Shown here: positions 6,323 to 54,924 of the stretch, in pieces
Layout: the number at the start of each line of letters is the position of its first letter
How positions within the stretch are numbered: position 1 is the stretch's first letter
Virus record (IMG/VR): IMGVR_UViG_3300032093_000174
Span: 1-55,093 of that record
Source: a virus
Lineage: Duplodnaviria > Caudoviricetes
Reading direction: 5' to 3' (one strand)
Length of the DNA stretch: 55,093 nucleotides
Notes under the pieces: model-generated
Seen by the model: only the letters and a program-made list of their open reading frames with translations
Databases searched by the model: none
What the model was told of the DNA's origin: nothing
Program-made: the position numbers and the translations under genes

Positions 6323-6511
6323 ATGCAAGACACCATCAACATCCTGGCCATCAGCAACAAAGGCCGTAGCCGCATTGGCACCACCATCACCACTGCCATT
6401 GTTGAGCAGAATTTTCACGACAAGCTTTTTATTGTGCTTCCGCAGTTCAATCAATGCCGATGGATTAAAAGGAACAATGATCCTGACTTTCGCATTATCC
6501 CGGAGGATTGA
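6323..6511 (+). CDS. hypothetical protein
   Basis: ATG after pyrimidine-rich leader. Confidence 0.6.
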   Translation: MQDTINILAISNKGRSRIGTTITTAIVEQNFHDKLFIVLPQFNQCRWIKRNNDPDFRIIPED

Positions 6512-6550
6512 TTGCTCTCCTAGCAATTACTGTTCCATCGCTTTCCTACC

Positions 6551-6859
6551 ATGCACACCATCCGCAACTACAACAGCAACGGGCCTTACTTTCCCTCCAC
6601 TCAGGGGGTGTATCAAGCAGCCCGTCTCCGCGAATTGATCATGCACGTCAGAGTGTGCATGCAAGATGGAGACTACCAAATTGGTGTGTTTGATGATGAT
6701 GGTCAATGCAAAGGTATTTGGACTGATGAAGCAGAGCCTGAGCCTGATGGTGAAGGAGGCATGGTTCTAGGAAGGCCCGCTTATGTGCTGTATCGCCCTG
6801 GCGACATCCCTGCAGGTTTGTGGAACCTGATGCTCTCCAAGTTCAAGAGGGTTCGATGA
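6551..6859 (+). CDS. hypothetical protein
   Basis: 102-aa ORF with ATGA coupling to next gene. Confidence 0.7.
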   Translation: MHTIRNYNSNGPYFPSTQGVYQAARLRELIMHVRVCMQDGDYQIGVFDDDGQCKGIWTDEAEPEPDGEGGMVLGRPAYVLYRPGDIPAGLWNLMLSKFKRVR

Positions 6860-7011
6860 TTCTCGTAGATTTCTTCTCTGAAGAGGCCTGTAAAGGCACG
6901 GAACTCGTAGAAGGCTGGTATTGGTATGAGGACGATGGGGAAGAAGTGGGAGGGCCGTATAGAGACGAGAAAGCCGCCATTGCGGCGGCTCAATCAGGGC
7001 TTAAATGGTGA
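6856..7011 (+). CDS. small acidic protein (GWYWY…GGPY…AI.AA)
   Basis: ATGA coupling; GAGG upstream. Confidence 0.6.
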   Translation: MILVDFFSEEACKGTELVEGWYWYEDDGEEVGGPYRDEKAAIAAAQSGLKW

Positions 7012-7095
7012 GGGTCCGGCTGGTTTTGTATTGGATCCGGCTGAAAGTGTATTGGGTCCGGCTAGAGGTGTATTGGGTCCGGGCAAGGGTGTATT
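7006..7095. repeat. ~4 tandem 21-bp repeats (TGTATTGG(G/A)TCCGG…)
   Basis: TGTATT at 7027, 7048, 7069 and 7090. Confidence 0.9.
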
Positions 7096-7121
7096 AGTGC
7101 GTTTGTACTATTTTCCTTGGC

Positions 7122-7140
7122 GAGAATGAGAATCGTTTTC
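7122..7140. promoter_or_regulatory. Fur-box-like site
   Basis: GAGAATGAGAATCGTTTTC matches GATAATGATAATCATTATC at 15/19. Confidence 0.6.
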
Positions 7141-7191
7141 AATAGTACTGGTGTACTGTAGTACTGGTGTACTACCATGCCGCCATGCGCA

Positions 7192-7280
7192 TAGCAGCAT
7201 ATGCCGGTAGCAGCATATGCCGGTAGCAGCATATGCCGGTAGCAGCATATGCCGGTAGCGACATATGCCGGTAGCGACAT
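7192..7280. repeat. 5.5 tandem 16-bp repeats TAGC(AG/GA)CATATGCCGG
   Basis: Units start at 7192, 7208, 7224, 7240, 7256 and 7272. Confidence 0.95.
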
Positions 7281-7300
7281 AATAGTGCAAATGTACCAGC

Positions 7301-7544
7301 ATAACCTGAGCCTATGATTCCCGGCCCTAGGATCAGCCAGGCTGATCAGACAAGCCGAGCCTATGGGCCAGCACCCCTCCCATAGCCTGAGCCTATCTGA
7401 CAAGCTGAGCTGATCAGACCGCCCCCTCTGACAAGCTGAGCTGATCAGACAAGCTGAGCCTATGGGCCGTGGCCCGCGTGACAAGCTGAGCTGATCAGAC
7501 AAGCTGAGCCTATGGGGCAAAGGCCAGTGATCAGCGCTGCTGAT
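7301..7544. repeat. ten 15-bp dyad boxes (ATCAGC-N3-GCTGAT-like), paired with ~50-bp period
   Basis: Starts at 7301, 7332/7350, 7382/7400, 7431/7449, 7481/7499 and 7530. Confidence 0.85.
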
Positions 7545-7715
7545 CAGGCCGCTAGTCTCACTTGTCTCGTGATAGGCGCGTGCGCGTGTGCGGTTCCAAT
7601 TACGGGGGGCGGCGATCACGGGCAGCAGCAGCAGCAGCCCCTACCATCCCTGCCCCCCTGCAGCCCTGGGCTAGTGGGCCACCTTTGCCACTGGCCCCCT
7701 AGCCTGGCCCTTTGG

Positions 7716-7766
7716 TTGACCTGCTACGGGGCCAGGCCCTTTAATGGGCTCACTGGCGAGAGCCAG
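7716..7766 (+). promoter_or_regulatory. promoter with 5' GNRA hairpin
   Basis: TTGACC-18-TTTAAT; CTGGC-GAGA-GCCAG. Confidence 0.65.
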
Positions 7767-7785
7767 CCCTCCACCCCCAAAGCTC

Positions 7786-9492
7786 ATGACCGCTTCCAAC
7801 CTGCCCAAAGCTGCCCTGGCCATCCTGGCCCTGCCGGGCGTCCAGTCCCTTGAGCGCGAGCCTGACGGCTGGTGCTGCCATCTGCACTACGGCTGGACGA
7901 CTGACGCCCTTAGTGGGGGCGGCACTATCATCGATTCAAACCTGGCCACAATCAGGGCCTACGTGAGGGGGGCCTATGTGATGCCAGCCCCTGCCCCTGC
8001 TGCAGTCCCTGCCCCCCATCCCTGCAGCGCTGAGGCCGTGGCCGACGACCTGCTATGGGCTTTGGATCAGCTTCGCTCAGAGCCTGAGCCTGCCCCTGCC
8101 CGTGGCCCCCTGCTGCCCGGCGAGACTGCCGCCCCTGCAGCCCCTGCCCCTGCAGGCCCTGCCCCTGAGCTGCCTGCCTTTGTCACCTGCCAGCAGCAGC
8201 AGCAGCAGCCGCAGCAGGGGGGCGAGTGGCGCCACCCTGCCCGTGGTGGCCGTGTGGCCTGGGATGAACCGGGAGAGTCTGCTGCAGCCCTGGCAGCCCT
8301 GCCCCCTCTGCCCCCTCTGCCCCCTGCCCCTGCTGCAGCCCCTGCCCCTGCTGCAGCCCCTGCCCGTCAGGCCGTGGCCCCTGGCCCCCTGGCCCGTAGC
8401 GTGGCCCCTGCCCGCTTACCTGCAGACGTGGCAGCTCTGCTGGCCCGATTTGGCCTTACGCTTGAAGGTCTTCTGACCGTGGGGGCCTCAAACGCCAAAC
8501 TCGCAAAGGGGGCGGCCCTGGCCTGGCCCGTGATCCTGCACCATCTGCCAGCAAAGGCCCTGGCTCAGGCCGTGGCAGGCCCTGCCCCTGGCAGCACTGC
8601 CCCCCGTAGTCGCATCCCTGGCCTGCAGGCCCTGGCAGAACGCGAGGGGGTGCTGGCCCTGGCCATGGCCCATAACGGCTGCCCCTGGGCATCTCAGGGC
8701 TGCGCGGCAGGCTGTCTGGCCTGGGCTGGCCATGGCGGCATGTCGGTGACCGTGGCAGCAGCCCGTGCCCGTAGGACTCTGGCGATGCTGGCAGGGGGGC
8801 CCGTCTACACCCGCGCCATCCTTTGGGCTCTGGCCCGTGCTTACCGGCAGGCTCAGGCCAAAGGGCTGCCCCTGGCTTACAGACTGCGCGGTACTGATGA
8901 TCTGCACTGGCATCTGGCCCGCCTCACTATCACCCCTGCAGAGGCTCAGAGCCTGGCCCGTCGCTATGGGTTGCCCGTGGCTCCCGGTGAGGGGATCACG
9001 CTTACTGAGGCCCTGGCCCTGGCCCCTGCTGGCACCATCCGCCCCTACGACTACAGCGCAGCCCCCGTGGATGGCCCTTTCGGCCTCAAGGCTCAAAGGT
9101 CAGCGGGCATCGATACGACCTGCAGCCTCAAGGCTGACCGGCAGGGGGGCGTCGACGTGGCGATACAGGCAGTCGCCGCAGGGTTCCGCGTGGCCGTGCC
9201 CGTGGCCCTGGCAAAGGGCCAGCCCTTGCCCGCCGTGCTGATCCTTGAAACCGGAGCCCAGGCCGTCGACCTGGCCTGTATCGATGGCGACACGTCCGAT
9301 CACCGATGGGCTGACCCGCAAGGGCCAGGCCTGGCAGGGGGCTGTGATGGCGTGGCCGTCATCCTGCGCACAAAGAGCAGCAGGGGCAAAGGGCCAGAGG
9401 CTGATGCATTCTCCCTGCAGCCTGTGATGGGCGTCTGGCAGCCCCTGGCAGGGGGCGGCCGGGCCATGCTCCGGGCTGAACCCTGGGCTTGA
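7786..9492 (+). CDS. Gp88-family protein with long Pro/Ala-rich N-terminal extension
   Basis: LLT…NAKLAK, CPWAS.GC..GCL..AG.G, RARRT, RLRGTDDL.W, YDYS and IDGD.SD.RW.DP motifs. Confidence 0.75.
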   Translation: MTASNLPKAALAILALPGVQSLEREPDGWCCHLHYGWTTDALSGGGTIIDSNLATIRAYVRGAYVMPAPAPAAVPAPHPCSAEAVADDLLWALDQLRSEPEPAPARGPLLPGETAAPAAPAPAGPAPELPAFVTCQQQQQQPQQGGEWRHPARGGRVAWDEPGESAAALAALPPLPPLPPAPAAAPAPAAAPARQAVAPGPLARSVAPARLPADVAALLARFGLTLEGLLTVGASNAKLAKGAALAWPVILHHLPAKALAQAVAGPAPGSTAPRSRIPGLQALAEREGVLALAMAHNGCPWASQGCAAGCLAWAGHGGMSVTVAAARARRTLAMLAGGPVYTRAILWALARAYRQAQAKGLPLAYRLRGTDDLHWHLARLTITPAEAQSLARRYGLPVAPGEGITLTEALALAPAGTIRPYDYSAAPVDGPFGLKAQRSAGIDTTCSLKADRQGGVDVAIQAVAAGFRVAVPVALAKGQPLPAVLILETGAQAVDLACIDGDTSDHRWADPQGPGLAGGCDGVAVILRTKSSRGKGPEADAFSLQPVMGVWQPLAGGGRAMLRAEPWA

Positions 9493-9561
9493 GCCCTGCT
9501 CATAGGCTGGCCCTCGTTTGCCCCCCGTTACCATGGCGGGGGGCCTTGTTTCGCTTAATTG

Positions 9562-9663
9562 GGAGACAATTATCATTAGAAATGCTCAACGATACGATTT
9601 CGTATCATCAGCATCGCTGATCAGTTGCAAAACGTTACAGAGAGCAGTAGTACGGCCGTACTA
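9562..9663. promoter_or_regulatory. compact cluster of five different regulator-like boxes
   Basis: Fur-like TAATGATAAT (minus), GATACG-N4-CGTATC, ATCAGC-ATC-GCTGAT, HLR1-like GTTGCAAA-AC-GTTACAGA, LexA-like TAGTAC-GGCC-GTACTA. Confidence 0.6.
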
Positions 9664-9932
9664 TCGCAGGGGGGCGGGGATACCCAAATTAGGAGCGACG
9701 CAATTTTCAATCCATTTTTTTGCCCCCATGTGCCACTTCCCAGTGCGCACTGACCGAACGATCTAGAGCTGAACGATGGGGAGTGAGGTCACCAAGATTG
9801 TTCGTAATCTTATGGTTCTTTCAGGATGAGGGCTATGGCAAGGAGGACGAAAGTAAGGAGAATTAGTAGAGCAATGATTACGCTCCAGGAGGGATCAGTT
9901 GGAGAGGCGAGGGGATGAAGCATGAGTTTATG

Positions 9933-10231
9933 AAGGCCGCTTGCGAGAGGGTAGCTCCCCCAGGAGCGTCATTCATGCGGCCTTAGTCTTACTATTGTCT
10001 CATTTGAGACTGTTTTAAGACTGGTGATAGCTACGCACAATATGAGCGATCAATAGAAAAGAAGAAAGCGAAAGGAGGTGGTAGGGAAGGAGCCCAGGAA
10101 TGTACCGCCTTGGGGGCTCAGCTCGTAGGGCTCCTAGCAAAGGCTTCTTAAAAGAAGGGAGTTGAGAGGAGGATGGTGGAGCTGAGCCGCTTGTTATCTA
10201 TCGCCTTGGGGGCTCCTGCTCGTAGCGGCTT
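9933..10231. repeat. three related stem-loops (two on +, one on -) with conserved loop and different stems
   Basis: 9933-9984, 10088-10135 and 10184-10231; loop CGCCTTGGGGGCTC..GCTCGTA. Confidence 0.7.
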
Positions 10232-10324
10232 GCGGAGGCTTATGAACTGCTCGTAATGAAGCTCACAAGCTACGCCTATTGTTATTGTAGAGCCAAATCT
10301 CATGAGTCTTAAATGAGACTCATG
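9985..10324. repeat. two palindromes with core GTCTYA-N2-TGAGAC
   Basis: Nested dyad at 9985-10022; 9-bp perfect arms at 10301-10324. Confidence 0.75.
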
Positions 10325-10428
10325 CTATAGCAAGGAAGTGACAGTTGAGAAAGTGTCTTTTATTGGCAAATCAAGACAAAAGCAAGGAAAATAAGCGCTG
10401 TTAGCATGGCTTTCCCTTCTCCGCAACC

Positions 10429-10668
10429 ATGGGATATAACAACAGTCGCACGGGCTATGCCACAGTCGTCAGCTTTTGGAGAGTGTTCGTCTCTTCAGAA
10501 AGAGCATGGCCTCGCACCATTCGGGACTTGCCTGCCATGGTCAAGCCCCCTAAGGAGCAGTTCTACCGTCCACGAGTGGCAGCGCATAGCGGCCATCAAA
10601 TTGACCTCCTGGATTGGCACTTGTCTTTAGATGAGACGCCACCGGCCTGCTGCTATCCTGATTGGTAG
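10429..10668 (+). CDS. hypothetical protein
   Basis: 79-aa ORF; an alternative frame (10406-10630) overlaps it. Confidence 0.4.
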   Translation: MGYNNSRTGYATVVSFWRVFVSSERAWPRTIRDLPAMVKPPKEQFYRPRVAAHSGHQIDLLDWHLSLDETPPACCYPDW

Positions 10669-10681
10669 TTCCTTGTGTCCC

Positions 10682-11044
10682 ATGAGCTTCGCCAGTTCCC
10701 TGCTCTTCTCCATTGCAATGGATGCCTGCAAAGAGGACTTAGACGAAGCGCGAGAGCGTCTTGAAGCGTTTGAGCTATGCAACGACAAGGTGACTGCTGC
10801 TGCGCTTGGCTATCTGCTTGCTAAGCAAGAAGAAAAAAGGAAAGAAGAGCAAGAAGAATGGATTTACGACCGCTTGTGTTCCATCATTGATAGTTGCATG
10901 GAGTGCGATGGCACTTACTACACAGAAAGTGCAGTGGAAGCCATTTTTGAAGTGTTTTACGATTGGCTAATTCACCACACTGAAAAGGACTGCGAAAAAG
11001 AACTTACCAAATTGTTTAAGCCTTATGTTGTGCAAAAGCACTAA
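10682..11044 (+). CDS. hypothetical acidic helical protein (start uncertain, 10682 or 10718)
   Basis: ORF with plausible protein composition. Confidence 0.65.
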   Translation: MSFASSLLFSIAMDACKEDLDEARERLEAFELCNDKVTAAALGYLLAKQEEKRKEEQEEWIYDRLCSIIDSCMECDGTYYTESAVEAIFEVFYDWLIHHTEKDCEKELTKLFKPYVVQKH

Positions 11045-11106
11045 TTGCTACCATTTTCTTTTCCCATAGCCTTTAGCCTTAAGGAGCTAGTCTCTTTAGG
11101 GCTTTT

Positions 11107-16111: not shown

Positions 16112-17488
16112 TCAGCGTACCAGACTATTCAGCCAATCAATATCATTATCCTTAGAGGCCTCAAGAATGGCACCAGCCAAGGCAAAAGCGTAGTCGTCTA
16201 CGCCCACTTCTTTGCCACCAGTTACCGCCCATTGCCCACTGCTTCTGTAGATAACACTGAGGTTTTTCAGTTGCTTGACGGCCTTCTCGTGAGGATACAT
16301 TTCAATAAGGCCAGCATTAAAGAGCTCCTTCATTTTGCTAAACGCTTTCATCTTGGTACTAACGGACCAAGCAAGTTCGGCAATGGGGAAGTCCTTAGAC
16401 ATGCTTTGAATGGTGCCAGAACTGTTGAACTGGTCAAGCACGATGCTTTGAAAATCGTAAATGCGATGGTGCTCCCTGATCCATTCTTCTACCTTGGCAA
16501 TATTCACTTCTTTCTTTCCGCCAATATCAAAATCAGGCTCAAAGGCATGAAATTTGTCCACCACTAGGCGCTCACCCTCGTAATGCACGATGCAAGCAGT
16601 GTAATCATCTCGACCCACGCCACCACGAGCAGGGTCAAGGGCTAGTACATATGTTCCCATTAGTTCACGCTGCGGAAACAAAATGCCCCTTTCTTTGTTC
16701 ACTGAAATGTCAACAATCTCCGCTGCCAACAATGCAGAGTTGTTCTTGGCAAACTGAGCACCATATTCCACCCAGAACTTATCAGGGTCGCGCTTTAGCT
16801 CAGCGTCAAGGAACGGACACCCCCATGGCAAATTTGGATTGACTGTCCAAGTGGCCAGGTTTTCCGCTTGCATGAACGGGTAGTCACCAGACGTGGCTTC
16901 GCAATAGTGCTGATAAAACAGACCATCAGTGAGCCATGGTGAAGATAGTTCCAGGATGCGACCGTGCTTACCAAACTGAGCGATGGAGGGAGACAGGGCT
17001 TGGTAAATGGCGCCAGCGCCACGGTTGGCATCGCCTTCAATGGCAAAGCTCAGCTCGTCCATGATCAGCATCACCACGGCTTTACCACGAGAAGCACGAG
17101 CCGATGCGGGGATGGCCTGGAACACGCAATTATTGCTCACTTCAATCTCAGTGGCTGTCTCCCTGGTAATTTCACCCACCAAGGGAGAGTCCATCAATAA
17201 TTGACGGATGTTGTTCAGGGCAAGCTTGGCCTGACTTTGATCGTTTGCAATGGTGAGGATGTAAAACTTTTCTGACTTTCTTACGCGCCTCTTGTATTGA
17301 TCCTCTAGAACGAAGCAGGCATAGAGCGCTGCAATGGAGGCCATGAGCGTCTTGCCACAGCGTCGGCCTAGTGCCCACACAGCGTGCGTCTTGTCTCCAC
17401 CAAAATAAGAATCAAGAATGCGCTTCTGCTCAGGCCACAGCTCCAATTGCAAAACTAGCTTGGCAAATTCACTGCATTTAAGCTTCAT
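16112..17488 (-). CDS. terL: terminase large subunit
   Basis: Walker A GRRCGKT, Walker B LIMDE, nuclease LALDPA and DD motifs. Confidence 0.92.
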   Translation of the reverse strand: MKLKCSEFAKLVLQLELWPEQKRILDSYFGGDKTHAVWALGRRCGKTLMASIAALYACFVLEDQYKRRVRKSEKFYILTIANDQSQAKLALNNIRQLLMDSPLVGEITRETATEIEVSNNCVFQAIPASARASRGKAVVMLIMDELSFAIEGDANRGAGAIYQALSPSIAQFGKHGRILELSSPWLTDGLFYQHYCEATSGDYPFMQAENLATWTVNPNLPWGCPFLDAELKRDPDKFWVEYGAQFAKNNSALLAAEIVDISVNKERGILFPQRELMGTYVLALDPARGGVGRDDYTACIVHYEGERLVVDKFHAFEPDFDIGGKKEVNIAKVEEWIREHHRIYDFQSIVLDQFNSSGTIQSMSKDFPIAELAWSVSTKMKAFSKMKELFNAGLIEMYPHEKAVKQLKNLSVIYRSSGQWAVTGGKEVGVDDYAFALAGAILEASKDNDIDWLNSLVR

Positions 17489-25046: not shown

Positions 25047-25351
25047 GCGAATACGTGCGGGTGATTGAAGAAGAGGAAGATGGTATTGGCGTGATGAAAG
25101 CGCTTGCCATTCTTTCCGCTAACGAGCATCGCAACACCTCACAGTGGCGCCTCGTCGAAGAGCAGCATTTCAAAAATGGACGCCTCGATGAAACTCACAT
25201 TTTTGTCATTAATGCCTATGACAAGCCTGACAAGCATTTTGATCAAGTGAAGATGCTGGTTTTTGAGGCTGAGGCTATTGCAAAGTCTTATGTGATGGAG
25301 GGTATTGAAAGTCAACTTGCAGAACTGTCGGATGAAGAGGACGATGATTAA
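25043..25351 (+). CDS. hypothetical acidic protein
   Basis: ATGA coupling. Confidence 0.7.
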   Translation: MSEYVRVIEEEEDGIGVMKALAILSANEHRNTSQWRLVEEQHFKNGRLDETHIFVINAYDKPDKHFDQVKMLVFEAEAIAKSYVMEGIESQLAELSDEEDDD

Positions 25352-25590
25352 TCTTCGCTTACTGCGGAGACTACGAATGTGGGGTAGCCAAGAAGATACA
25401 AAATTGAAAGCTGAAAAGCAGAACTAAGCAAGCGTATCTCCGCGCAATCAGGCGAAATAATGCCTCGCTCCATTCGCGAAACGGTGGTTTGGTCGCAATG
25501 AAGGATGGCCGCTATGTCGCATTGTGACATGCCGCTGTTGAGGCGAGCTTCTCTCATTCGCTGTCCAATCACTTGCCTGCTTTCTTGCAT
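25348..25590 (-). CDS. XRE/Cro-C1 helix-turn-helix protein
   Basis: IGQRMREAR..SGMSQ..IA…QTTVSRMERG…P. Confidence 0.85.
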   Translation of the reverse strand: MQESRQVIGQRMREARLNSGMSQCDIAAILHCDQTTVSRMERGIISPDCAEIRLLSSAFQLSILYLLGYPTFVVSAVSED

Positions 25591-25708
25591 GGAAAGTATG
25601 GGAGCCTTTACTTTTGTGGTGATGCGCCGATGCTGAATATGCTGCATTTTTAGGCTGTATTTCCTAAGTTAGTCTATCTCGCGTTTTATTTCTTGATAGA
25701 GTATTGCC

Positions 25709-46920: not shown

Positions 46921-49900
46921 ATGGCATCCACTCTCAAGCATCTTCGTTCTTCTACGACCGATAAGCGCCCCACTGCCTCTGGGTTGGCGGAAGGACAGTT
47001 GGCTCTTAATACTGCTTCAGGCACGCCTGCATTGTTCTTCAAGGACAATGGAGGGGGCGTAGTGAAGGTTGGTCCGGCGCATGTGGGCGGCACTGCGCCC
47101 AACGCTTCTCCTGCTGGCAGTGCTGGTAACAGCATGGGAGAACTATGGGTGGATAATGGTACGACAATCAATGGTCTGAAGTATTACGACGGTTCTGTTT
47201 TCGTCAATCTCACCCCGTCTGGTAGTACCACTGTTCCAGGGCTGGTTGAGCTTGCTACTAATGCAGAAACACAAGCTGGCACTGACACTGTTCGCGCCGT
47301 GACGCCTTCGGGCTTGCAAAGCAAGATTAGCGACAGTATAAGCACTACCAGCTCGACCACCATCGCCTCTGCTACTGCCGTAAAAACGGCTTATGACTTA
47401 GCCAACGCAGCATTGCCCCGAAGTGGAGGATCAGTTACTGGCGAGCTTTTGATTGCACCGTCTGGAAGCCTTGTTTTTGAAGGTAGTACAAACGACGGCT
47501 TTGAAACCACACTGGCAGTAACCGATCCCACGGCAGATAGGATTATCACGCTGCCCAATACGACTGGCACGGTCATTACTACTGGCGACACGGGAACTGT
47601 TACCAGCACAATGATTGTCGATGGCACAATTGTCAACGCCGACATCAATGCTTCTGCCGCCATCGTTGACACTAAGCTTGCCACAATTGCTACCGCAGGA
47701 AAGGTAAGCAATAGTGCTACTACTGCCACCAGCGCCAATACGGCCAGTGCCATTGTTGCCCGCGACGGAAGCGGCAACTTTACGGCCAATGTCATCACTG
47801 CTTCGCTGACTGGTAACGTAACGGGCAATGTAACTGGCAATCTTACTGGCACTGCTAGCGCCATTGCTGATGATACTGTCACCTCTGCGAAGATTGTTGA
47901 TGGTGCTATTGTCAATGCCGATGTTAATGCTTCTGCGGCCATTGCTGGCACAAAGATCAGCCCTAACTTTGGCAGTCAGAACATTGTCACGACTGGCACC
48001 GCCACTGCTTCCGGCTTTATTCCCACTGGTTCTAGCGTGCCAACAAATGGCATGTATTTGCCAGCGGCAAACCAATTAGGCTTCTCAACCAATGGCACGG
48101 GGCGGTTGTTCGTCGATGCGAGCGGCAGGGTGGGAATTGGAACAAGTACCCCAGTTTCTCCGTTGACAATTATTGGTGCTGTTGATGGCGTATCATTCGG
48201 AACGAATACAACAAGTTTGGCGAGTAGCACTGCCAACGGTGTATTTTCTCCCACTGGCAACCAGCTTGGCTTTACAACTAATGCAACTGAGCGGGTGCGG
48301 ATTGACACAGGTGGCCGTTTGTTGGTTGGGACGAGTGTTGCCTATTCAATTCTTGGTTTTCAAGCGGGCACGCAACTTGCAGCACAAGATGGGACAGTTT
48401 TATGTATTAGAAACACCGAAAACAATGCAGGTACTGAATTAAACTGCGCCAAATCCCGTGGAACAGTAGGTGCTGCAGCAACTGTGGTGTCTGGTGACAC
48501 TATTGCCATTCAGCGTTTTGCCGCGTTTGAAGGGACGTCTTATGTAGAAGCTGCCCGTGTAGCAGCGCAAGTTGACGGCACCCCTGGCACCAATGACATG
48601 CCCGGTCGTTTGGTGTTCAGTACTACTGCTGATGGAGGAAGTACCGTAAGTGAGCGGATGCGTATTGATTCCAGCGGGAGGGTTGGGATTGGCGCTACTA
48701 GCCCAACCGAATTACTGCAGGTGGGCGGCAACATTTTTGCAAACGGTGGATTTGTTCGGACGGCTGGTGCAGGTGGAGCCGCAATTACTACGCGGGGATT
48801 TCGTCAAACAATCGATGGCACCGAATACTTGGCCATCTATCACGACAACACCGGTGCCGTATTTAACGTAAACGGCTCCGAACGCGCCCGCATCGACTCC
48901 TCCGGCAGGCTGCTGGTGGGGGCAAGTAGTGCGCGTAGCAATTACTACGGCTCCGTGACGCCAGGGGGAATTCAACTTGAAACTGGAACTCAGTCTCTTT
49001 TTCAAAACTCCAATAACGCCATTGGCTCTGCGTTCTATTTAGGCAAGTCTCGTGGGGCAACGGTTAACAGCAACACGGTGGTTCAGGCTGGTGATCAGCT
49101 TGGCGCTGTAATTTTCTTTGGCGCTGATGGAACAAATGTCTGGCCTGGTGCTCAGATTACCGCAGAAGTAGACGGCACCCCTGGCGCCAACGACATGCCA
49201 GGCCGCCTGGTATTCAGCACCACAGCCGATGGTGCTGCCAGTCCTACGGAGCGGATGCGGATTGACAACGCCGGGAACACCACATGGAATGGTGTTGGCC
49301 TTAAGCTAACTACAGGCAGGAACATTTCTGCGACTGTAGATAACAGCAGTATCAATATACTTGGCGGAGATATCACAACTAATCCAGGTGCAAACATTGA
49401 ACTCTATGGGGGCACCCACGTTTCATTTGCCAACACAATGATCCTGGATGCCAATGAGCATCGCTTCCGCACCGCAAACGGAGTCACTGAGCGGATGCGA
49501 ATTGATTCCAGCGGCAACGTAGGCATCGGAGGCGTCCCTGGCTCTTATCGCCTAGATGTTTTGGGGAGTGGTGGACAGAGAATCTTGAATCAAGGAGGAG
49601 GATCATTTCTTGAAATTGGCCAGGGAACTACAACTAATCAACCTGCTTACATTGATCTTATTGGCGATACAACTTACGCAGATTTTGGTTTCAGAATTAT
49701 TCGTAACGGTGGTGGGGCAAACGCAAACACTGAGTTTGTGCATCGTGGAACAGGCGACTTAAGACTTTACACTCAAGACGCTGCGCCCATTACGTTCTAT
49801 ACCGCTAACGCAGAACGCGCCCGCATCGACACCTCAGGCAGGCTGCTGGTGGGGACGAGTGCAAGCATCACTGCTGTTAGCTTCCCTTCTCTTGTTCAAT

Positions 49901-53086: not shown

Positions 53087-54924
53087 TGACTGGCAACATT
53101 ACTGTCACGCAAGACAACACGCAACTTGTTATTACAGAAGAGAGCGGCAACGAAGTGGTGGTTCTTGCCGCCAGTTCTCCCTCCATTGCTCTGAGTGGAA
53201 ACGGACCACAGGGCGCAATTGGCGCCACAGGCGCATCTGGCGTGATTGGTGCCACTGGCGCAACAGGCGCTGGTGTGACTGGCGCAACTGGCGTGCAGGG
53301 TGCCACTGGCATTCAAGGAGCCACGGGCGTTACTGGCGCTAGTGGTCCGGTGGGTGCCACTGGAGTGGTGGGCGTTACGGGCGCCACGGGAGCGCAAGGT
53401 GCCACTGGTGTGGGTATCACAGGAGCAACTGGCGTAGTGGGCGTTACAGGCGCCACGGGAGCAACTGGCATTCAAGGGGCCACGGGCCCGGTGGGTATTA
53501 CTGGGGCCACGGGTGCTACCGGCGTGATTGGCGTTAGTGGCGCTACCGGGCCAATTGGCGCCACTGGCGTGATTGGTCCTACTGGTGTGTCAGGCCCCAC
53601 TGGAGCGACCGGCGCTTTGGGTGCTACTGGCGTTCAAGGGGTGACAGGTGCCACGGGAGTAGTGGGCGTGTCTGGTGCCACTGGCCCGGCAGGAATCACA
53701 GGGGCAACTGGCGCAATTGGCGTGTCAGGGGCGACGGGCGCCACTGGAGCGACGGGCGTTACTGGCGCCACGGGCGTTGGTATCACTGGTGCTACTGGTG
53801 CTACTGGCGTTGCTGGCGTGAGTGCTGCAGGTCGCATTTGGTATTTCCGTCAAGCCAATTCCGACATTAGCGGCTACGAATCGTTACAGCCAGACAGGCC
53901 TGATTCAGATCCACAAGATGACATGACTGCCGTGGTGGTTAATACCAGCGGTCAAGTGATCATTGAAGAATTTGCCACTGATGCTGGCGATCCAGGCATC
54001 ACTGAAATTCCCTCTGGCGAGTATGAGTTTCGTTTCTGGAGTTACGTTAGTAGCGCGAGTGGGAGCACCAATCTTGTCTTCAAAGTTTACAAGCGCAACA
54101 CTGGTGGCACTGAAACTCTCCTGTTTGAACTTGATAGCCCCGAGATCGACGCCACAAGTAGCAACTATTACACAGCGCTAAGGGTTCTTGTCAGTCCTCT
54201 CACCATCTCCGATACTGATCGAATTGTTGTAAAAGTTTATGCTGAAACCACTCACACTAGCAATGTCACTGCTCATTTCCTGCATTCAGGCATAACCCCT
54301 AGCAGCATTCGCACTGCCATTGCTCAAGGCTATATCGGCCCGCAAGGGGCGACTGGCGCCACTGGCGTGATTGGTCCCACTGGTGCATCTGGCGTGGTTG
54401 GCGTGAGTGGTGCTACTGGTGCCATTGGCGTGAGTGGTGCTACGGGAGTTATTGGTGTAAGTGGTGCAACAGGGGCCACTGGTGTGCAGGGCGCCACTGG
54501 CGTGATTGGCATTACAGGCGCCACTGGAGTGCAGGGTCCAACGGGTGCCACTGGGGTGGAGGGAGTTACGGGCGCTACTGGGGCTACTGGCGTTATTGGA
54601 GTATCTGGAGCCACTGGGGTGCAGGGGGCGACTGGCGTGGTTGGCGTTACCGGGGCTACTGGTGTGACTGGCGCCACTGGTGTGACTGGCGCCACTGGAG
54701 TGCAAGGTGCCACGGGGGTAGTGGGCGTATCAGGGGCCACTGGTGCGACGGGAGTTGCTGGGGTGACTGGAGCCACTGGGGTGCAGGGGGCGACGGGGCC
54801 AATTGGCATCACGGGCGCCACTGGGGTGGTAGGCGTATCGGGGGCAACAGGGGCTACAGGCCCTGCAAGCGCAACAAGCTACGGCGCCATTCTTGCTATT
54901 CATTACGGCGCAGCAGTGCCCTAA
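53083..54924 (+). CDS. collagen-like (G-X-T) fibre protein with central globular domain
   Basis: Two long G-X-Y tracts dominated by GAT, GVT and GVS. Confidence 0.88.

Follow-up and report, generated by a model that had tools for sequence, protein, structure and literature searches.

The viral record IMGVR_UViG_3300032093_000174 (Duplodnaviria; Caudoviricetes) is a linear sequence of 55,093 bp, about 76% complete, whose full length is referred to here as the window. Its gene order is the same as that of the Synechococcus siphophage S-CBS4 and runs from small early genes via the genes for the alpha and beta subunits of ribonucleotide reductase to the terminase, portal and structural genes. Judged by its sequence the phage is an S-CBS4-like cyanosiphophage and a freshwater cyanobacterial virus; to our knowledge this phage group is known only as lytic. 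The present analysis concerns a non-coding region of approximately 770 bases (7012-7785) which is built of successive blocks of repeats and putative operators and lies upstream of a gene encoding a GP88-like protein.

The region starts directly behind a small conserved acidic open reading frame (ORF) of 51 amino acids (6856-7011, plus strand), the stop codon of which abuts the first repeat. This ORF has no Pfam match; most related loci share its conserved 3' end. The original prediction, made from the sequence of the window alone, had described positions 7006-7544 as an array of several host transcription factor-like sites without a credible gene. The absence of a credible gene was upheld, while the proposed end at 7544 was not, the non-coding stretch continuing to approximately 7785. 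Two ORFs inside the region (7062-7619, minus strand, and 7512-7853, plus strand) have no Pfam match and overlie repeats that differ between relatives. The predicted block structure is real as well: the repeats exceed the expectation or the number in shuffled sequences, and arrays are also present in relatives.

Putative operators of host regulators

Six matches to the dyad TAGTAC-N4-GTACTA with up to two mismatches were detected in the window compared to 0.40 expected, a number reached by none of 100 shuffles. They are located at 7095, 7143, 7159 and 7283, at 9648 (perfect) and at 47223 (weak), which confirmed the four TAGT(A/G)C-N4-GTAC dyads that had been predicted within the region. The first of these is a degenerate LexA-type box TAGTGCGTTTGTACTA with one mismatch (7095-7110) which also occurs in the related locus L021, followed by two abutting boxes TAGTACTGGTGTACT(G/A) (7143-7174) and by the box TAGTGCAAATGTACCA with two mismatches (7283-7298), at the place of which L021 and L006 carry perfect copies. 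The cyanobacterial LexA consensus is given in the accessible text of PMC3091678 as RGTACNNNDGTWCB or AGTACWNWTGTACT. Read by eye, the boxes at 7143 and 7159 fit the former at all specified positions and the latter at 13 of 14.

Host genomes were represented by five members of the host clade (Vulcanococcus and freshwater Synechococcus) that were found via a 16S primer scan and are relatives of the likely hosts. Throughout, the controls for pattern counts were reversed patterns, which can be biased, and the consensus scans with mismatches are cruder than profiles. In these five picocyanobacterial genomes GTACNNNTGTACT gave 32 matches compared to 5 for the control. According to Pfam ten ORFs flanking such sites comprise three recA, two S24-peptidase (umuD-like) and two dprA genes as well as one TraB-family, one ankyrin and one familyless ORF, and LexA-type copies lie upstream of the recA, umuD-like and dprA genes. 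The predicted LexA identity of the dyads is thus supported by the fit to the published consensus, by the copies at host SOS genes and by conservation in relatives. Against it stands that in the five host genomes GTAC-N4-GTAC was not detected within 1.5 kb of lexA itself and that the perfect 6+6 palindrome is absent. No LexA DNA-binding domain was detected in the window. Since five near-complete relatives (four of them at least 90% complete) also have neither an S24 peptidase (LexA/CI-type) nor a Fur gene, host proteins are the likely binders. As a separate observation, a perfect hairpin (T/C)GATCAGCAGTGCTGATCAG occurs in three host genomes (L243, L244, L247) in a conserved non-coding element behind a gene of 255-266 codons, and each copy shares its contig with lexA.

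A putative Fur-family box GAGAATGAGAATCGTTTTCAA (7122-7142) directly abuts the first of the two best LexA-type dyads, so that 7126-7142, 7143-7158 and 7159-7174 follow one another without any spacer. The Fur-like 19-mer GAGAATGAGAATCGTTTTC at 7122-7140 deviates by three mismatches from the palindrome TTGAGAATNATTCTCAA; the 15 of 19 matches noted in the original prediction refer to the E. coli consensus. Better copies were found at the same place in L021, L006, L027, L026 and L009, copies in relatives having one mismatch. With up to three mismatches TTGAGAATNATTCTCAA occurs at 40 sites in the five host genomes compared to 3 for the control. In genome G005 the sites precede genes for a ferritin, a flavodoxin, a Crp-family regulator and a CobW_C-domain protein, and the iron-stress island with Fur-like sites furthermore contains a porin and a solute-binding protein. 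A Fur-like site precedes a Crp-family regulator gene also in G001 and G002. The suggested Fur site was thus supported by the enrichment of the palindrome at host metal-homeostasis genes and by its conservation at the locus in relatives, with the restriction that Fur and Zur are indistinguishable here because of the CobW-type neighbour and the cyanobacterial Zur boxes described in the accessible part of PMC3323870.

The region also carries what is, by its match to host sequences, a third class of host operator that had escaped the original prediction. The 24-bp palindrome ATGCCGCCATGCGCATAGCAGCAT (7177-7200) resembles a host operator in front of persulfide-dioxygenase-like genes and shares 21 of its 24 bases with a site in the host genome G004. 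Related host sites were detected shortly upstream of the start codons of orthologous MBL-fold plus rhodanese (persulfide-dioxygenase-like) genes at five loci (two in G001 and one each in G004, G046 and G052) and beside an SQR-like flavoprotein gene in G002. The palindrome has 5 matches compared to 1 for the control in the five genomes and 8 compared to 1 in a set of 31 genomes, 5 of the 31 having a match. In freshwater picocyanobacteria the conserved palindrome (A/T)ATGCGGCTATGCTCATA precedes MBL-fold plus rhodanese genes and lies next to an SQR-like gene (host loci L239, L240, L242, L258, L259, L262 and L238); we regard it as a candidate operator for a sulfide-responsive regulon that has not yet been described.

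The 24-bp palindrome is followed by 5.2 copies of a 16-bp unit TAGCAGCATATGCCGG, each with the palindrome GCATATGC (7192-7275, plus strand, 97% matches). By sequence comparison this array arose through expansion of the palindrome's right half, and relatives have 8-bp-phased GCATA runs in its place. The array itself had been predicted with 5.5 copies and was retained. Its assignment to NtcA was not, since the repeat reads GGTA-N8-TGCC, which is not an NtcA site, and GTA-N8-TAC is absent from 7006-7544 (nine occurrences in the whole window). The assignment of dyads to LysR regulators found no support either, the T-N11-A pattern being too degenerate to be informative.

Phage-specific repeats, GATC-rich array and leader

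The four 21-bp repeats at the upstream end of the region were found as predicted. They are iteron-like direct repeats of the type GGGTCCGGCT-N6-GTATT (7012-7095, plus strand), and the motif GGNCCGGS-N7-GTAT occurs four times in this segment and once elsewhere in the 55 kb, with 0.95 copies expected. Three to four units of 21-23 bp of the same type are present in most relatives directly after the stop codon of the conserved small ORF, and in the complete relative G007 the motif is confined to this locus. The repeats appear to be phage-specific. They were rejected as a host site due to the missing enrichment of the motif in 13 genomes of the host genus (429 matches compared to 1327 for the control). 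The 60-mer with the lowest GC content of the zone adjoins the repeats, with 35% GC at 7090 in the window and 8%, 12% and 5% in L004, L019 and L024, respectively.

Downstream of the last LexA-type box a GATC-rich composite array (7301-7547) combines GACAAGCTGAGC units, CTGATCAG palindromes, 7-5-7 dyads such as TGATCAGCGCTGCTGATCA, and CCTATGGG/CCCATAGG arms. The ten 15-bp dyads that had been counted between 7301 and 7544 could not be reproduced; the array was instead resolved into 18-, 50- and 99-bp periods with five CTGATCAG palindromes. It contains seven GATC in 247 bp compared to 0.85 in shuffles, and TGATCAG has 31 matches in the window compared to 9.5 expected, 11 of them in 7342-7547. The array is 82-87% identical in L021 and L006, and TGATCA-rich arrays also occur in L032, L013 and L009. 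In host genomes the GACAAGCTGAGC unit gave 122 matches compared to 30 for the control, none of them exact. For TGATCAG-N5-CTGATCA 116 host sites were counted compared to 3, a ratio that is not trusted because the reversed control contains CTAG.

The array is followed by a conserved leader (7548-7715, plus strand) with a conserved GGCCA...TGGCC hairpin, which is 76-89% identical in L021, L006, L004 and L009. As to structured RNA, no Rfam family matched in the region, and the covariation support in an alignment of ten leader sequences was weak (term -0.16). A promoter-like element TTGACC-N18-TTTAAT was read by eye at 7716-7745 (plus strand), and its TTGAC..TAATG is conserved in L021, L006 and L004. 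Contigs assembled from four DNA runs have breaks inside the repeats at 7221/7230 and 7458/7487 and contain co-occurring variants.

The locus in related viruses

A search with the GP88-like protein yielded 34 loci in viral contigs. Most relatives share the order of 21-23-bp repeats followed by variable arrays and, in the closer relatives, by the conserved leader, and the boxes are conserved at the same locus in related phage contigs. Motifs were counted in 22 non-redundant sequences, comprising 21 loci and the first 20 kb of the window. Near-duplicates (L005, L008, L010, L012, L017, L018, L025 and L029) were dropped from the counts, as were L033-L037, in which the GP88 domain is absent or only partly shared.

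The upstream zones (37.1 kb) contained 37 LexA-like and 19 Fur-like boxes, the 12.7 kb directly behind the gene 4 and 5, and the other 149.8 kb 9 and 6, respectively. The third operator was detected 17 times in the upstream zones compared to 2 times in 197.6 kb elsewhere in a scan that included the whole window. The locus is 13 to 45 times as dense in boxes as the flanking DNA. Of the sequences that extend 1.5 kb or more upstream (17), 12 have LexA-like boxes, 11 Fur-like boxes and 9 the third operator. The arms of the LexA-type dyads are kept across relatives and their spacers vary (TGGT, ATTT, AAAC, AAAT, GTTT and others), as would be expected for a protein-binding dyad. Directly behind the gene, too, relatives have a box of the LexA-like, Fur-like or third-operator type.

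In the complete relative G007 (68.5 kb) the LexA-type box occurs only at this locus, and the locus is internal, which contradicts its suggested position at a genome end. Several related contigs end inside or beside the locus. That there are more sites than a single promoter would need, as had been noted for the window, also holds for relatives with up to six LexA-like boxes (L021) or about 20 Pho-box-like units (L031). In L031 the segment 5240-5480 has 20 CTTAAC in 240 bp, with none in the other 7.3 kb and with 14 of the 19 spacings being 11 bp, and this array follows the 21-bp repeats and a Fur-like box. It fits the geometry of the cyanobacterial Pho box, for which at least three direct 8-bp units CTTAACCT with 3-bp linkers are described in the accessible text of PMC1906773; Pho-box-like units are absent from the window. 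Predicting Pho boxes in the genomes of phages was reported to be unreliable in the part of PMC10976474 that is accessible, and a crude two-unit Pho pattern was not enriched in the five host-like genomes (30 matches compared to 61 for the control). We further observed that the approximately 20 CTTAACC units at 11-bp spacing (L031, 5249-5473) stand in place of the LexA and third-operator blocks.

Other arrays at the same locus were observed in L033 (5326-5575, units of 26 and 24 bp) and L034 (5383-5575, 25 bp), both with 100% matching units, as well as in L037 (846-926, 24 bp, 87% matches) and L036 (1617-1879, 40 bp, 80%). These arrays point to recent expansion and to a fast turnover of the locus. 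A 25-bp dyad of L004 gave no signal in host genomes (25 matches compared to 44 for the control), and for the core of a 34-bp unit of L011 and L019 the signal was uncertain, with 74 matches compared to 13, mostly in small genomes.

The accessory module and the GP88-like gene

The region belongs to approximately 4.3 kb (6750-11100) of the window that are missing from the cultured relative S-CBS4. The additional DNA is located between 6551-6859, the homologue of the last S-CBS4 gene, and a small ORF at approximately 11108 that is conserved with the start of the S-CBS4 record. Besides the repeat region it accommodates a 582-codon ORF (7744-9492) and a stretch poor in genes. The S-CBS4 record was scanned in full, and the module was not detected anywhere. 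Since the cultured phage lacks the whole module, the latter is regarded as accessory and not as a core origin or packaging site. The moron-like module consists of the repeat region, the GP88-like gene and a second small cassette. No prophage copies were found in the genomes searched with the peptide patterns used. The S-CBS4 record NC_016766 is opened inside a gene: the homologue of 6551-6859 runs off its end and, if the record ends are joined, stops five bases into its start. The ends of NC_016766 are therefore probably not physical ends. The first 9000 bases of the window have a composition unlike the rest of the phage, with 52-71% G+C, against 45-54% in most of the sequence that follows 10 kb, and with a negative GC skew despite plus-strand genes.

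The gene downstream of the region encodes a protein with a variable N-terminal part, a Pro/Ala-rich linker and a C-terminal GP88 domain (7786-9492, plus strand; Pfam PF17338, phrog_1617). Its likely start, set from an alignment, is the ATG at 7786, the ORF being listed from 7744. The C-terminal 348 residues constitute the GP88 domain, a large family with 519 representatives. Three cysteines, C79, C86 and C90 (C-x6-C-x3-C), are invariant. The predicted fold is confident (predicted local distance difference test score, pLDDT, of 93.8) and of the alpha/beta type. The domain has no sequence match in PDB and no Foldseek match in PDB at E <= 0.001, and its fold resembles only GP88 and Gp37/Gp68-like viral models (BFVD). 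The protein looks like an enzyme and not like an initiator. The N-terminal part varies between relatives; this domain was observed to stand alone in other contigs (L033-L036), and the linker has an insertion of 18 bases in one sample (at 7984). A possible lead from GP88 as a cluster A family of mycobacteriophages to an origin was dropped, as the accessible part of PMC7157519 gave no link to gene 88.

Behind the GP88-like gene approximately 900 bp (9500-10400) contain only short ORFs. A second small cassette (9617-9663) stands at the beginning of this stretch and consists of CTGATCAG (9617-9624) and the perfect LexA-type box TAGTACGGCCGTACTA (9648-9663). The stretch resembles a second control region in front of the genes leading to ribonucleotide reductase.

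Two further features of the window lie apart from the module. On the minus strand at 25348-25647 a lone 99-residue HTH_3 (Cro/CI-type) regulator is encoded inside the structural module, at a position that matches the "transcriptional repressor" gp021 of S-CBS4, and the DNA upstream has its own dyads (TTAGG-N8-CCTAA and CTATC-N20-GATAG). Long runs of 9-, 18-, 27- and 81-bp repeats with units such as GGCGCAACT and ACTGGCGCC were found at 53200-54860. They lie in a 613-codon ORF near the tail-fibre genes, the product of which is consistent with a collagen-like Gly-X-Y repeat protein.

Possible functions of the region

We tentatively favour the view, held with considerable reservation, that the region is a control region where host stress repressors gate the accessory gene cassette. 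It would carry operators for LexA (SOS response), for a Fur-family metal sensor (Fur or Zur) and for a repressor of the persulfide-dioxygenase (PDO)/SQR genes. In an unstressed cell these host repressors would be bound to the cassette and damp rightward transcription into the GP88-like gene, and at the second cassette they would also restrain the following genes including those for ribonucleotide reductase. DNA damage, metal starvation or sulfide stress would remove the repressors, and the phage would thus read the physiology of its host through host proteins. That the repressors bind, which way they act and which promoter they regulate are inferences. The single boxes just after the gene and before the next genes appear to be placed like ordinary operators, which favours a control region. 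Titration of the same regulators would be an expected side effect, because many near-perfect sites are located on replicating DNA.

Host control of phage genes has been described for LexA, which represses a promoter of the CTX phage (PMC9502458), and for host PhoB, which according to the accessible text of PMC10976474 binds and controls cyanophage genes. The region is similar to the LexA-repressed promoter PrstA of the CTX phage in having host SOS boxes in a phage control region, with no phage gene for a LexA/CI-type peptidase found here. It differs by four boxes (up to six in a relative) that are interleaved with phage repeats and with operators belonging to two further host regulators. Promoters under host LexA are reportedly also found in Bacillus phage GIL01 and in coliphage 186 (tum). 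Colicin-type promoters are mapped and compact and combine tandem SOS boxes with a second regulator. They share with the region two abutting LexA boxes beside an operator for metal or another stress, which would give a tight multi-signal control of an accessory gene; here, however, the cassette is duplicated and hundreds of bases away from the gene. With the PhoB-controlled genes of S-PM2d and the pstS of P-SSM2 the locus would share the principle that the box of a host nutrient-stress regulator tunes phage genes, L031 being Pho-box-like. However, the known cases, as far as presented in the accessible text of PMC10976474, have one to two boxes per promoter, in contrast to approximately 20 units at 11-bp spacing in L031 and none in the window.

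Several observations speak against such a control region. The number and perfection of the sites exceed the needs of a promoter, and the boxes abut without spacer. Composite units are duplicated, with 55 bp present twice in L006 and 82 bp 2.3 times in L026, and 20 perfect copies of TAGTAC-N4-GTACTA are present in the 22 phage sequences compared to none in the five host genomes. A consensus promoter scan found no site in 6500-8000 and none among the boxes, and the only promoter-like element, the one read by eye, follows downstream at a distance of 420-620 bp from the boxes. Furthermore, three repressors acting in series would require three stresses at once unless there are several promoters, and 5 of the 17 relatives (L004, L011, L016, L019 and L031) have no LexA-like box.

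Some of these observations leave room for a decoy, in which the array, on the many replicating copies of the phage DNA, would sequester host LexA, the Fur-family sensor and the PDO/SQR repressor and thereby switch on SOS and recombination, metal uptake and sulfide genes without a phage protein. We regard this as rather unlikely. The dense, abutting sites duplicated as composite units, the excess of perfect LexA-type copies over the host genomes, the targeting of several unrelated regulators at one locus and the failure to find a regulated promoter among the boxes are in its favour, as are the turnover of array content between relatives up to fully identical units (periods of 26 and 24 in L033 and 25 in L034) and the apparently iron-dependent products of neighbouring phage genes, namely the class Ia reductase beta subunit and the GP88-like protein with its invariant Cys triad. 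The single boxes before the next genes, however, resemble ordinary operators, the only Fur-like box of the window is imperfect, and LexA-like boxes are missing from the five relatives named above. An array for PhoB, an activator, as in L031 would moreover starve the Pho promoters of the host and seemingly harm the phage. The wider version, in which LexA, the Fur-family sensor, the PDO/SQR repressor and in a relative the Pho regulator are drained and lineages swap arrays according to the regulator to be disarmed, is likewise unlikely. The physical principle is that of the Fur titration assay (FURTA), a laboratory method in which multicopy DNA bearing a Fur box relieves the repression of the Fur regulon. 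FURTA differs in being a laboratory artefact put to use and not a natural phage function, and the single imperfect box of the window is a further difference.

The 21-bp repeats could also be iterons for a phage initiator, with the A+T-richer patch melting and host regulators gating the firing of a replication origin, or, together with the other repeats, serve as a packaging (pac) or partition site that binds the small terminase subunit or a centromere-binding protein. An origin, which we consider quite improbable, would agree with four direct repeats that are two helical turns apart and unique in the genome of the complete relative, with the lowest-GC 60-mer directly beside them and with the clustered GATC. 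The lambda origin consists of four iterons plus an A+T-rich stretch, and E. coli datA and P1 incA are titration loci. The region is comparable to these in its four phased repeats next to an A+T-richer patch and in clustered sites able to titrate a DNA-binding protein. However, no initiator (Rep-type) family was found in the scanned ORFs, the adjacent gene looks like one for an enzyme, the group's helicase-type gene is approximately 11 kb away from the position of the locus in S-CBS4, and DnaA-like boxes show no enrichment, their density being 0.08 per kb within the upstream zones as well as outside them. The phage group can do without the module, which S-CBS4 lacks in spite of the same gene order, and the titrated proteins would be host stress regulators instead of a replication protein. 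The cumulative GC skew, which has its minimum at 6.5-9.5 kb in the window and, in G007, at 33 kb near the gene at 31.0-32.6 kb, would also suit an origin, but it is confounded by the unusual composition of 1-9 kb and by the C-rich gene. A packaging or partition function is very improbable. The pac site of P1 is made up of GATC-bearing TGATCAG-like hexamers, which recalls the accumulation of GATC and TGATCAG in the region, and several related contigs end at the locus. Contig ends at repeats are, however, a usual product of short-read assemblers, and the locus is internal in G007 and absent from S-CBS4. The large terminase gene (16112-17488, minus strand, beside the portal gene and placed by gene order with S-CBS4) and its neighbour are 8.6 kb away, and no partition gene was present among the ORFs scanned.

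It is doubtful, finally, that the boxes only resemble host operators and are bound by phage proteins alone, for instance by the HTH_3 regulator, or represent neutral products of slippage. Such a Cro/CI-type gene exists, recent slippage is evident from arrays whose units are identical, neither the 21-bp repeats nor the GACAAGCTGAGC units have a clear host counterpart, and the reported unreliability of Pho-box prediction in phages (PMC10976474, in its accessible part) would also agree with it. However, the boxes fall into three independent motif classes that agree base for base with operators of the host and are found together in divergent relatives, and the LexA-type spacers change while the arms are kept. 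The HTH_3 regulator was rejected as the binder, none of the array motifs being present in the intergenic DNA beside its own gene.

Phages are known to borrow single host regulators, such as LexA in the CTX phage and PhoB in cyanomyoviruses. For a locus that stacks the operators of at least three unrelated host stress regulators, with a content that shifts among relatives, no description was found in the open-access literature searched, nor, in agreement with the original prediction, was a phage precedent for a multi-regulator decoy. As a by-product, a candidate operator has emerged for the regulon around the persulfide-dioxygenase genes of freshwater picocyanobacteria, and under either reading the locus yields short, testable DNA probes. 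If the array acts as a decoy, it would represent a new kind of host takeover in which the SOS, metal and sulfur programmes are rewired by DNA alone. If the region is a host-read control region, as we tentatively favour, the virus would couple its accessory cassette to DNA damage, metal supply and sulfide.

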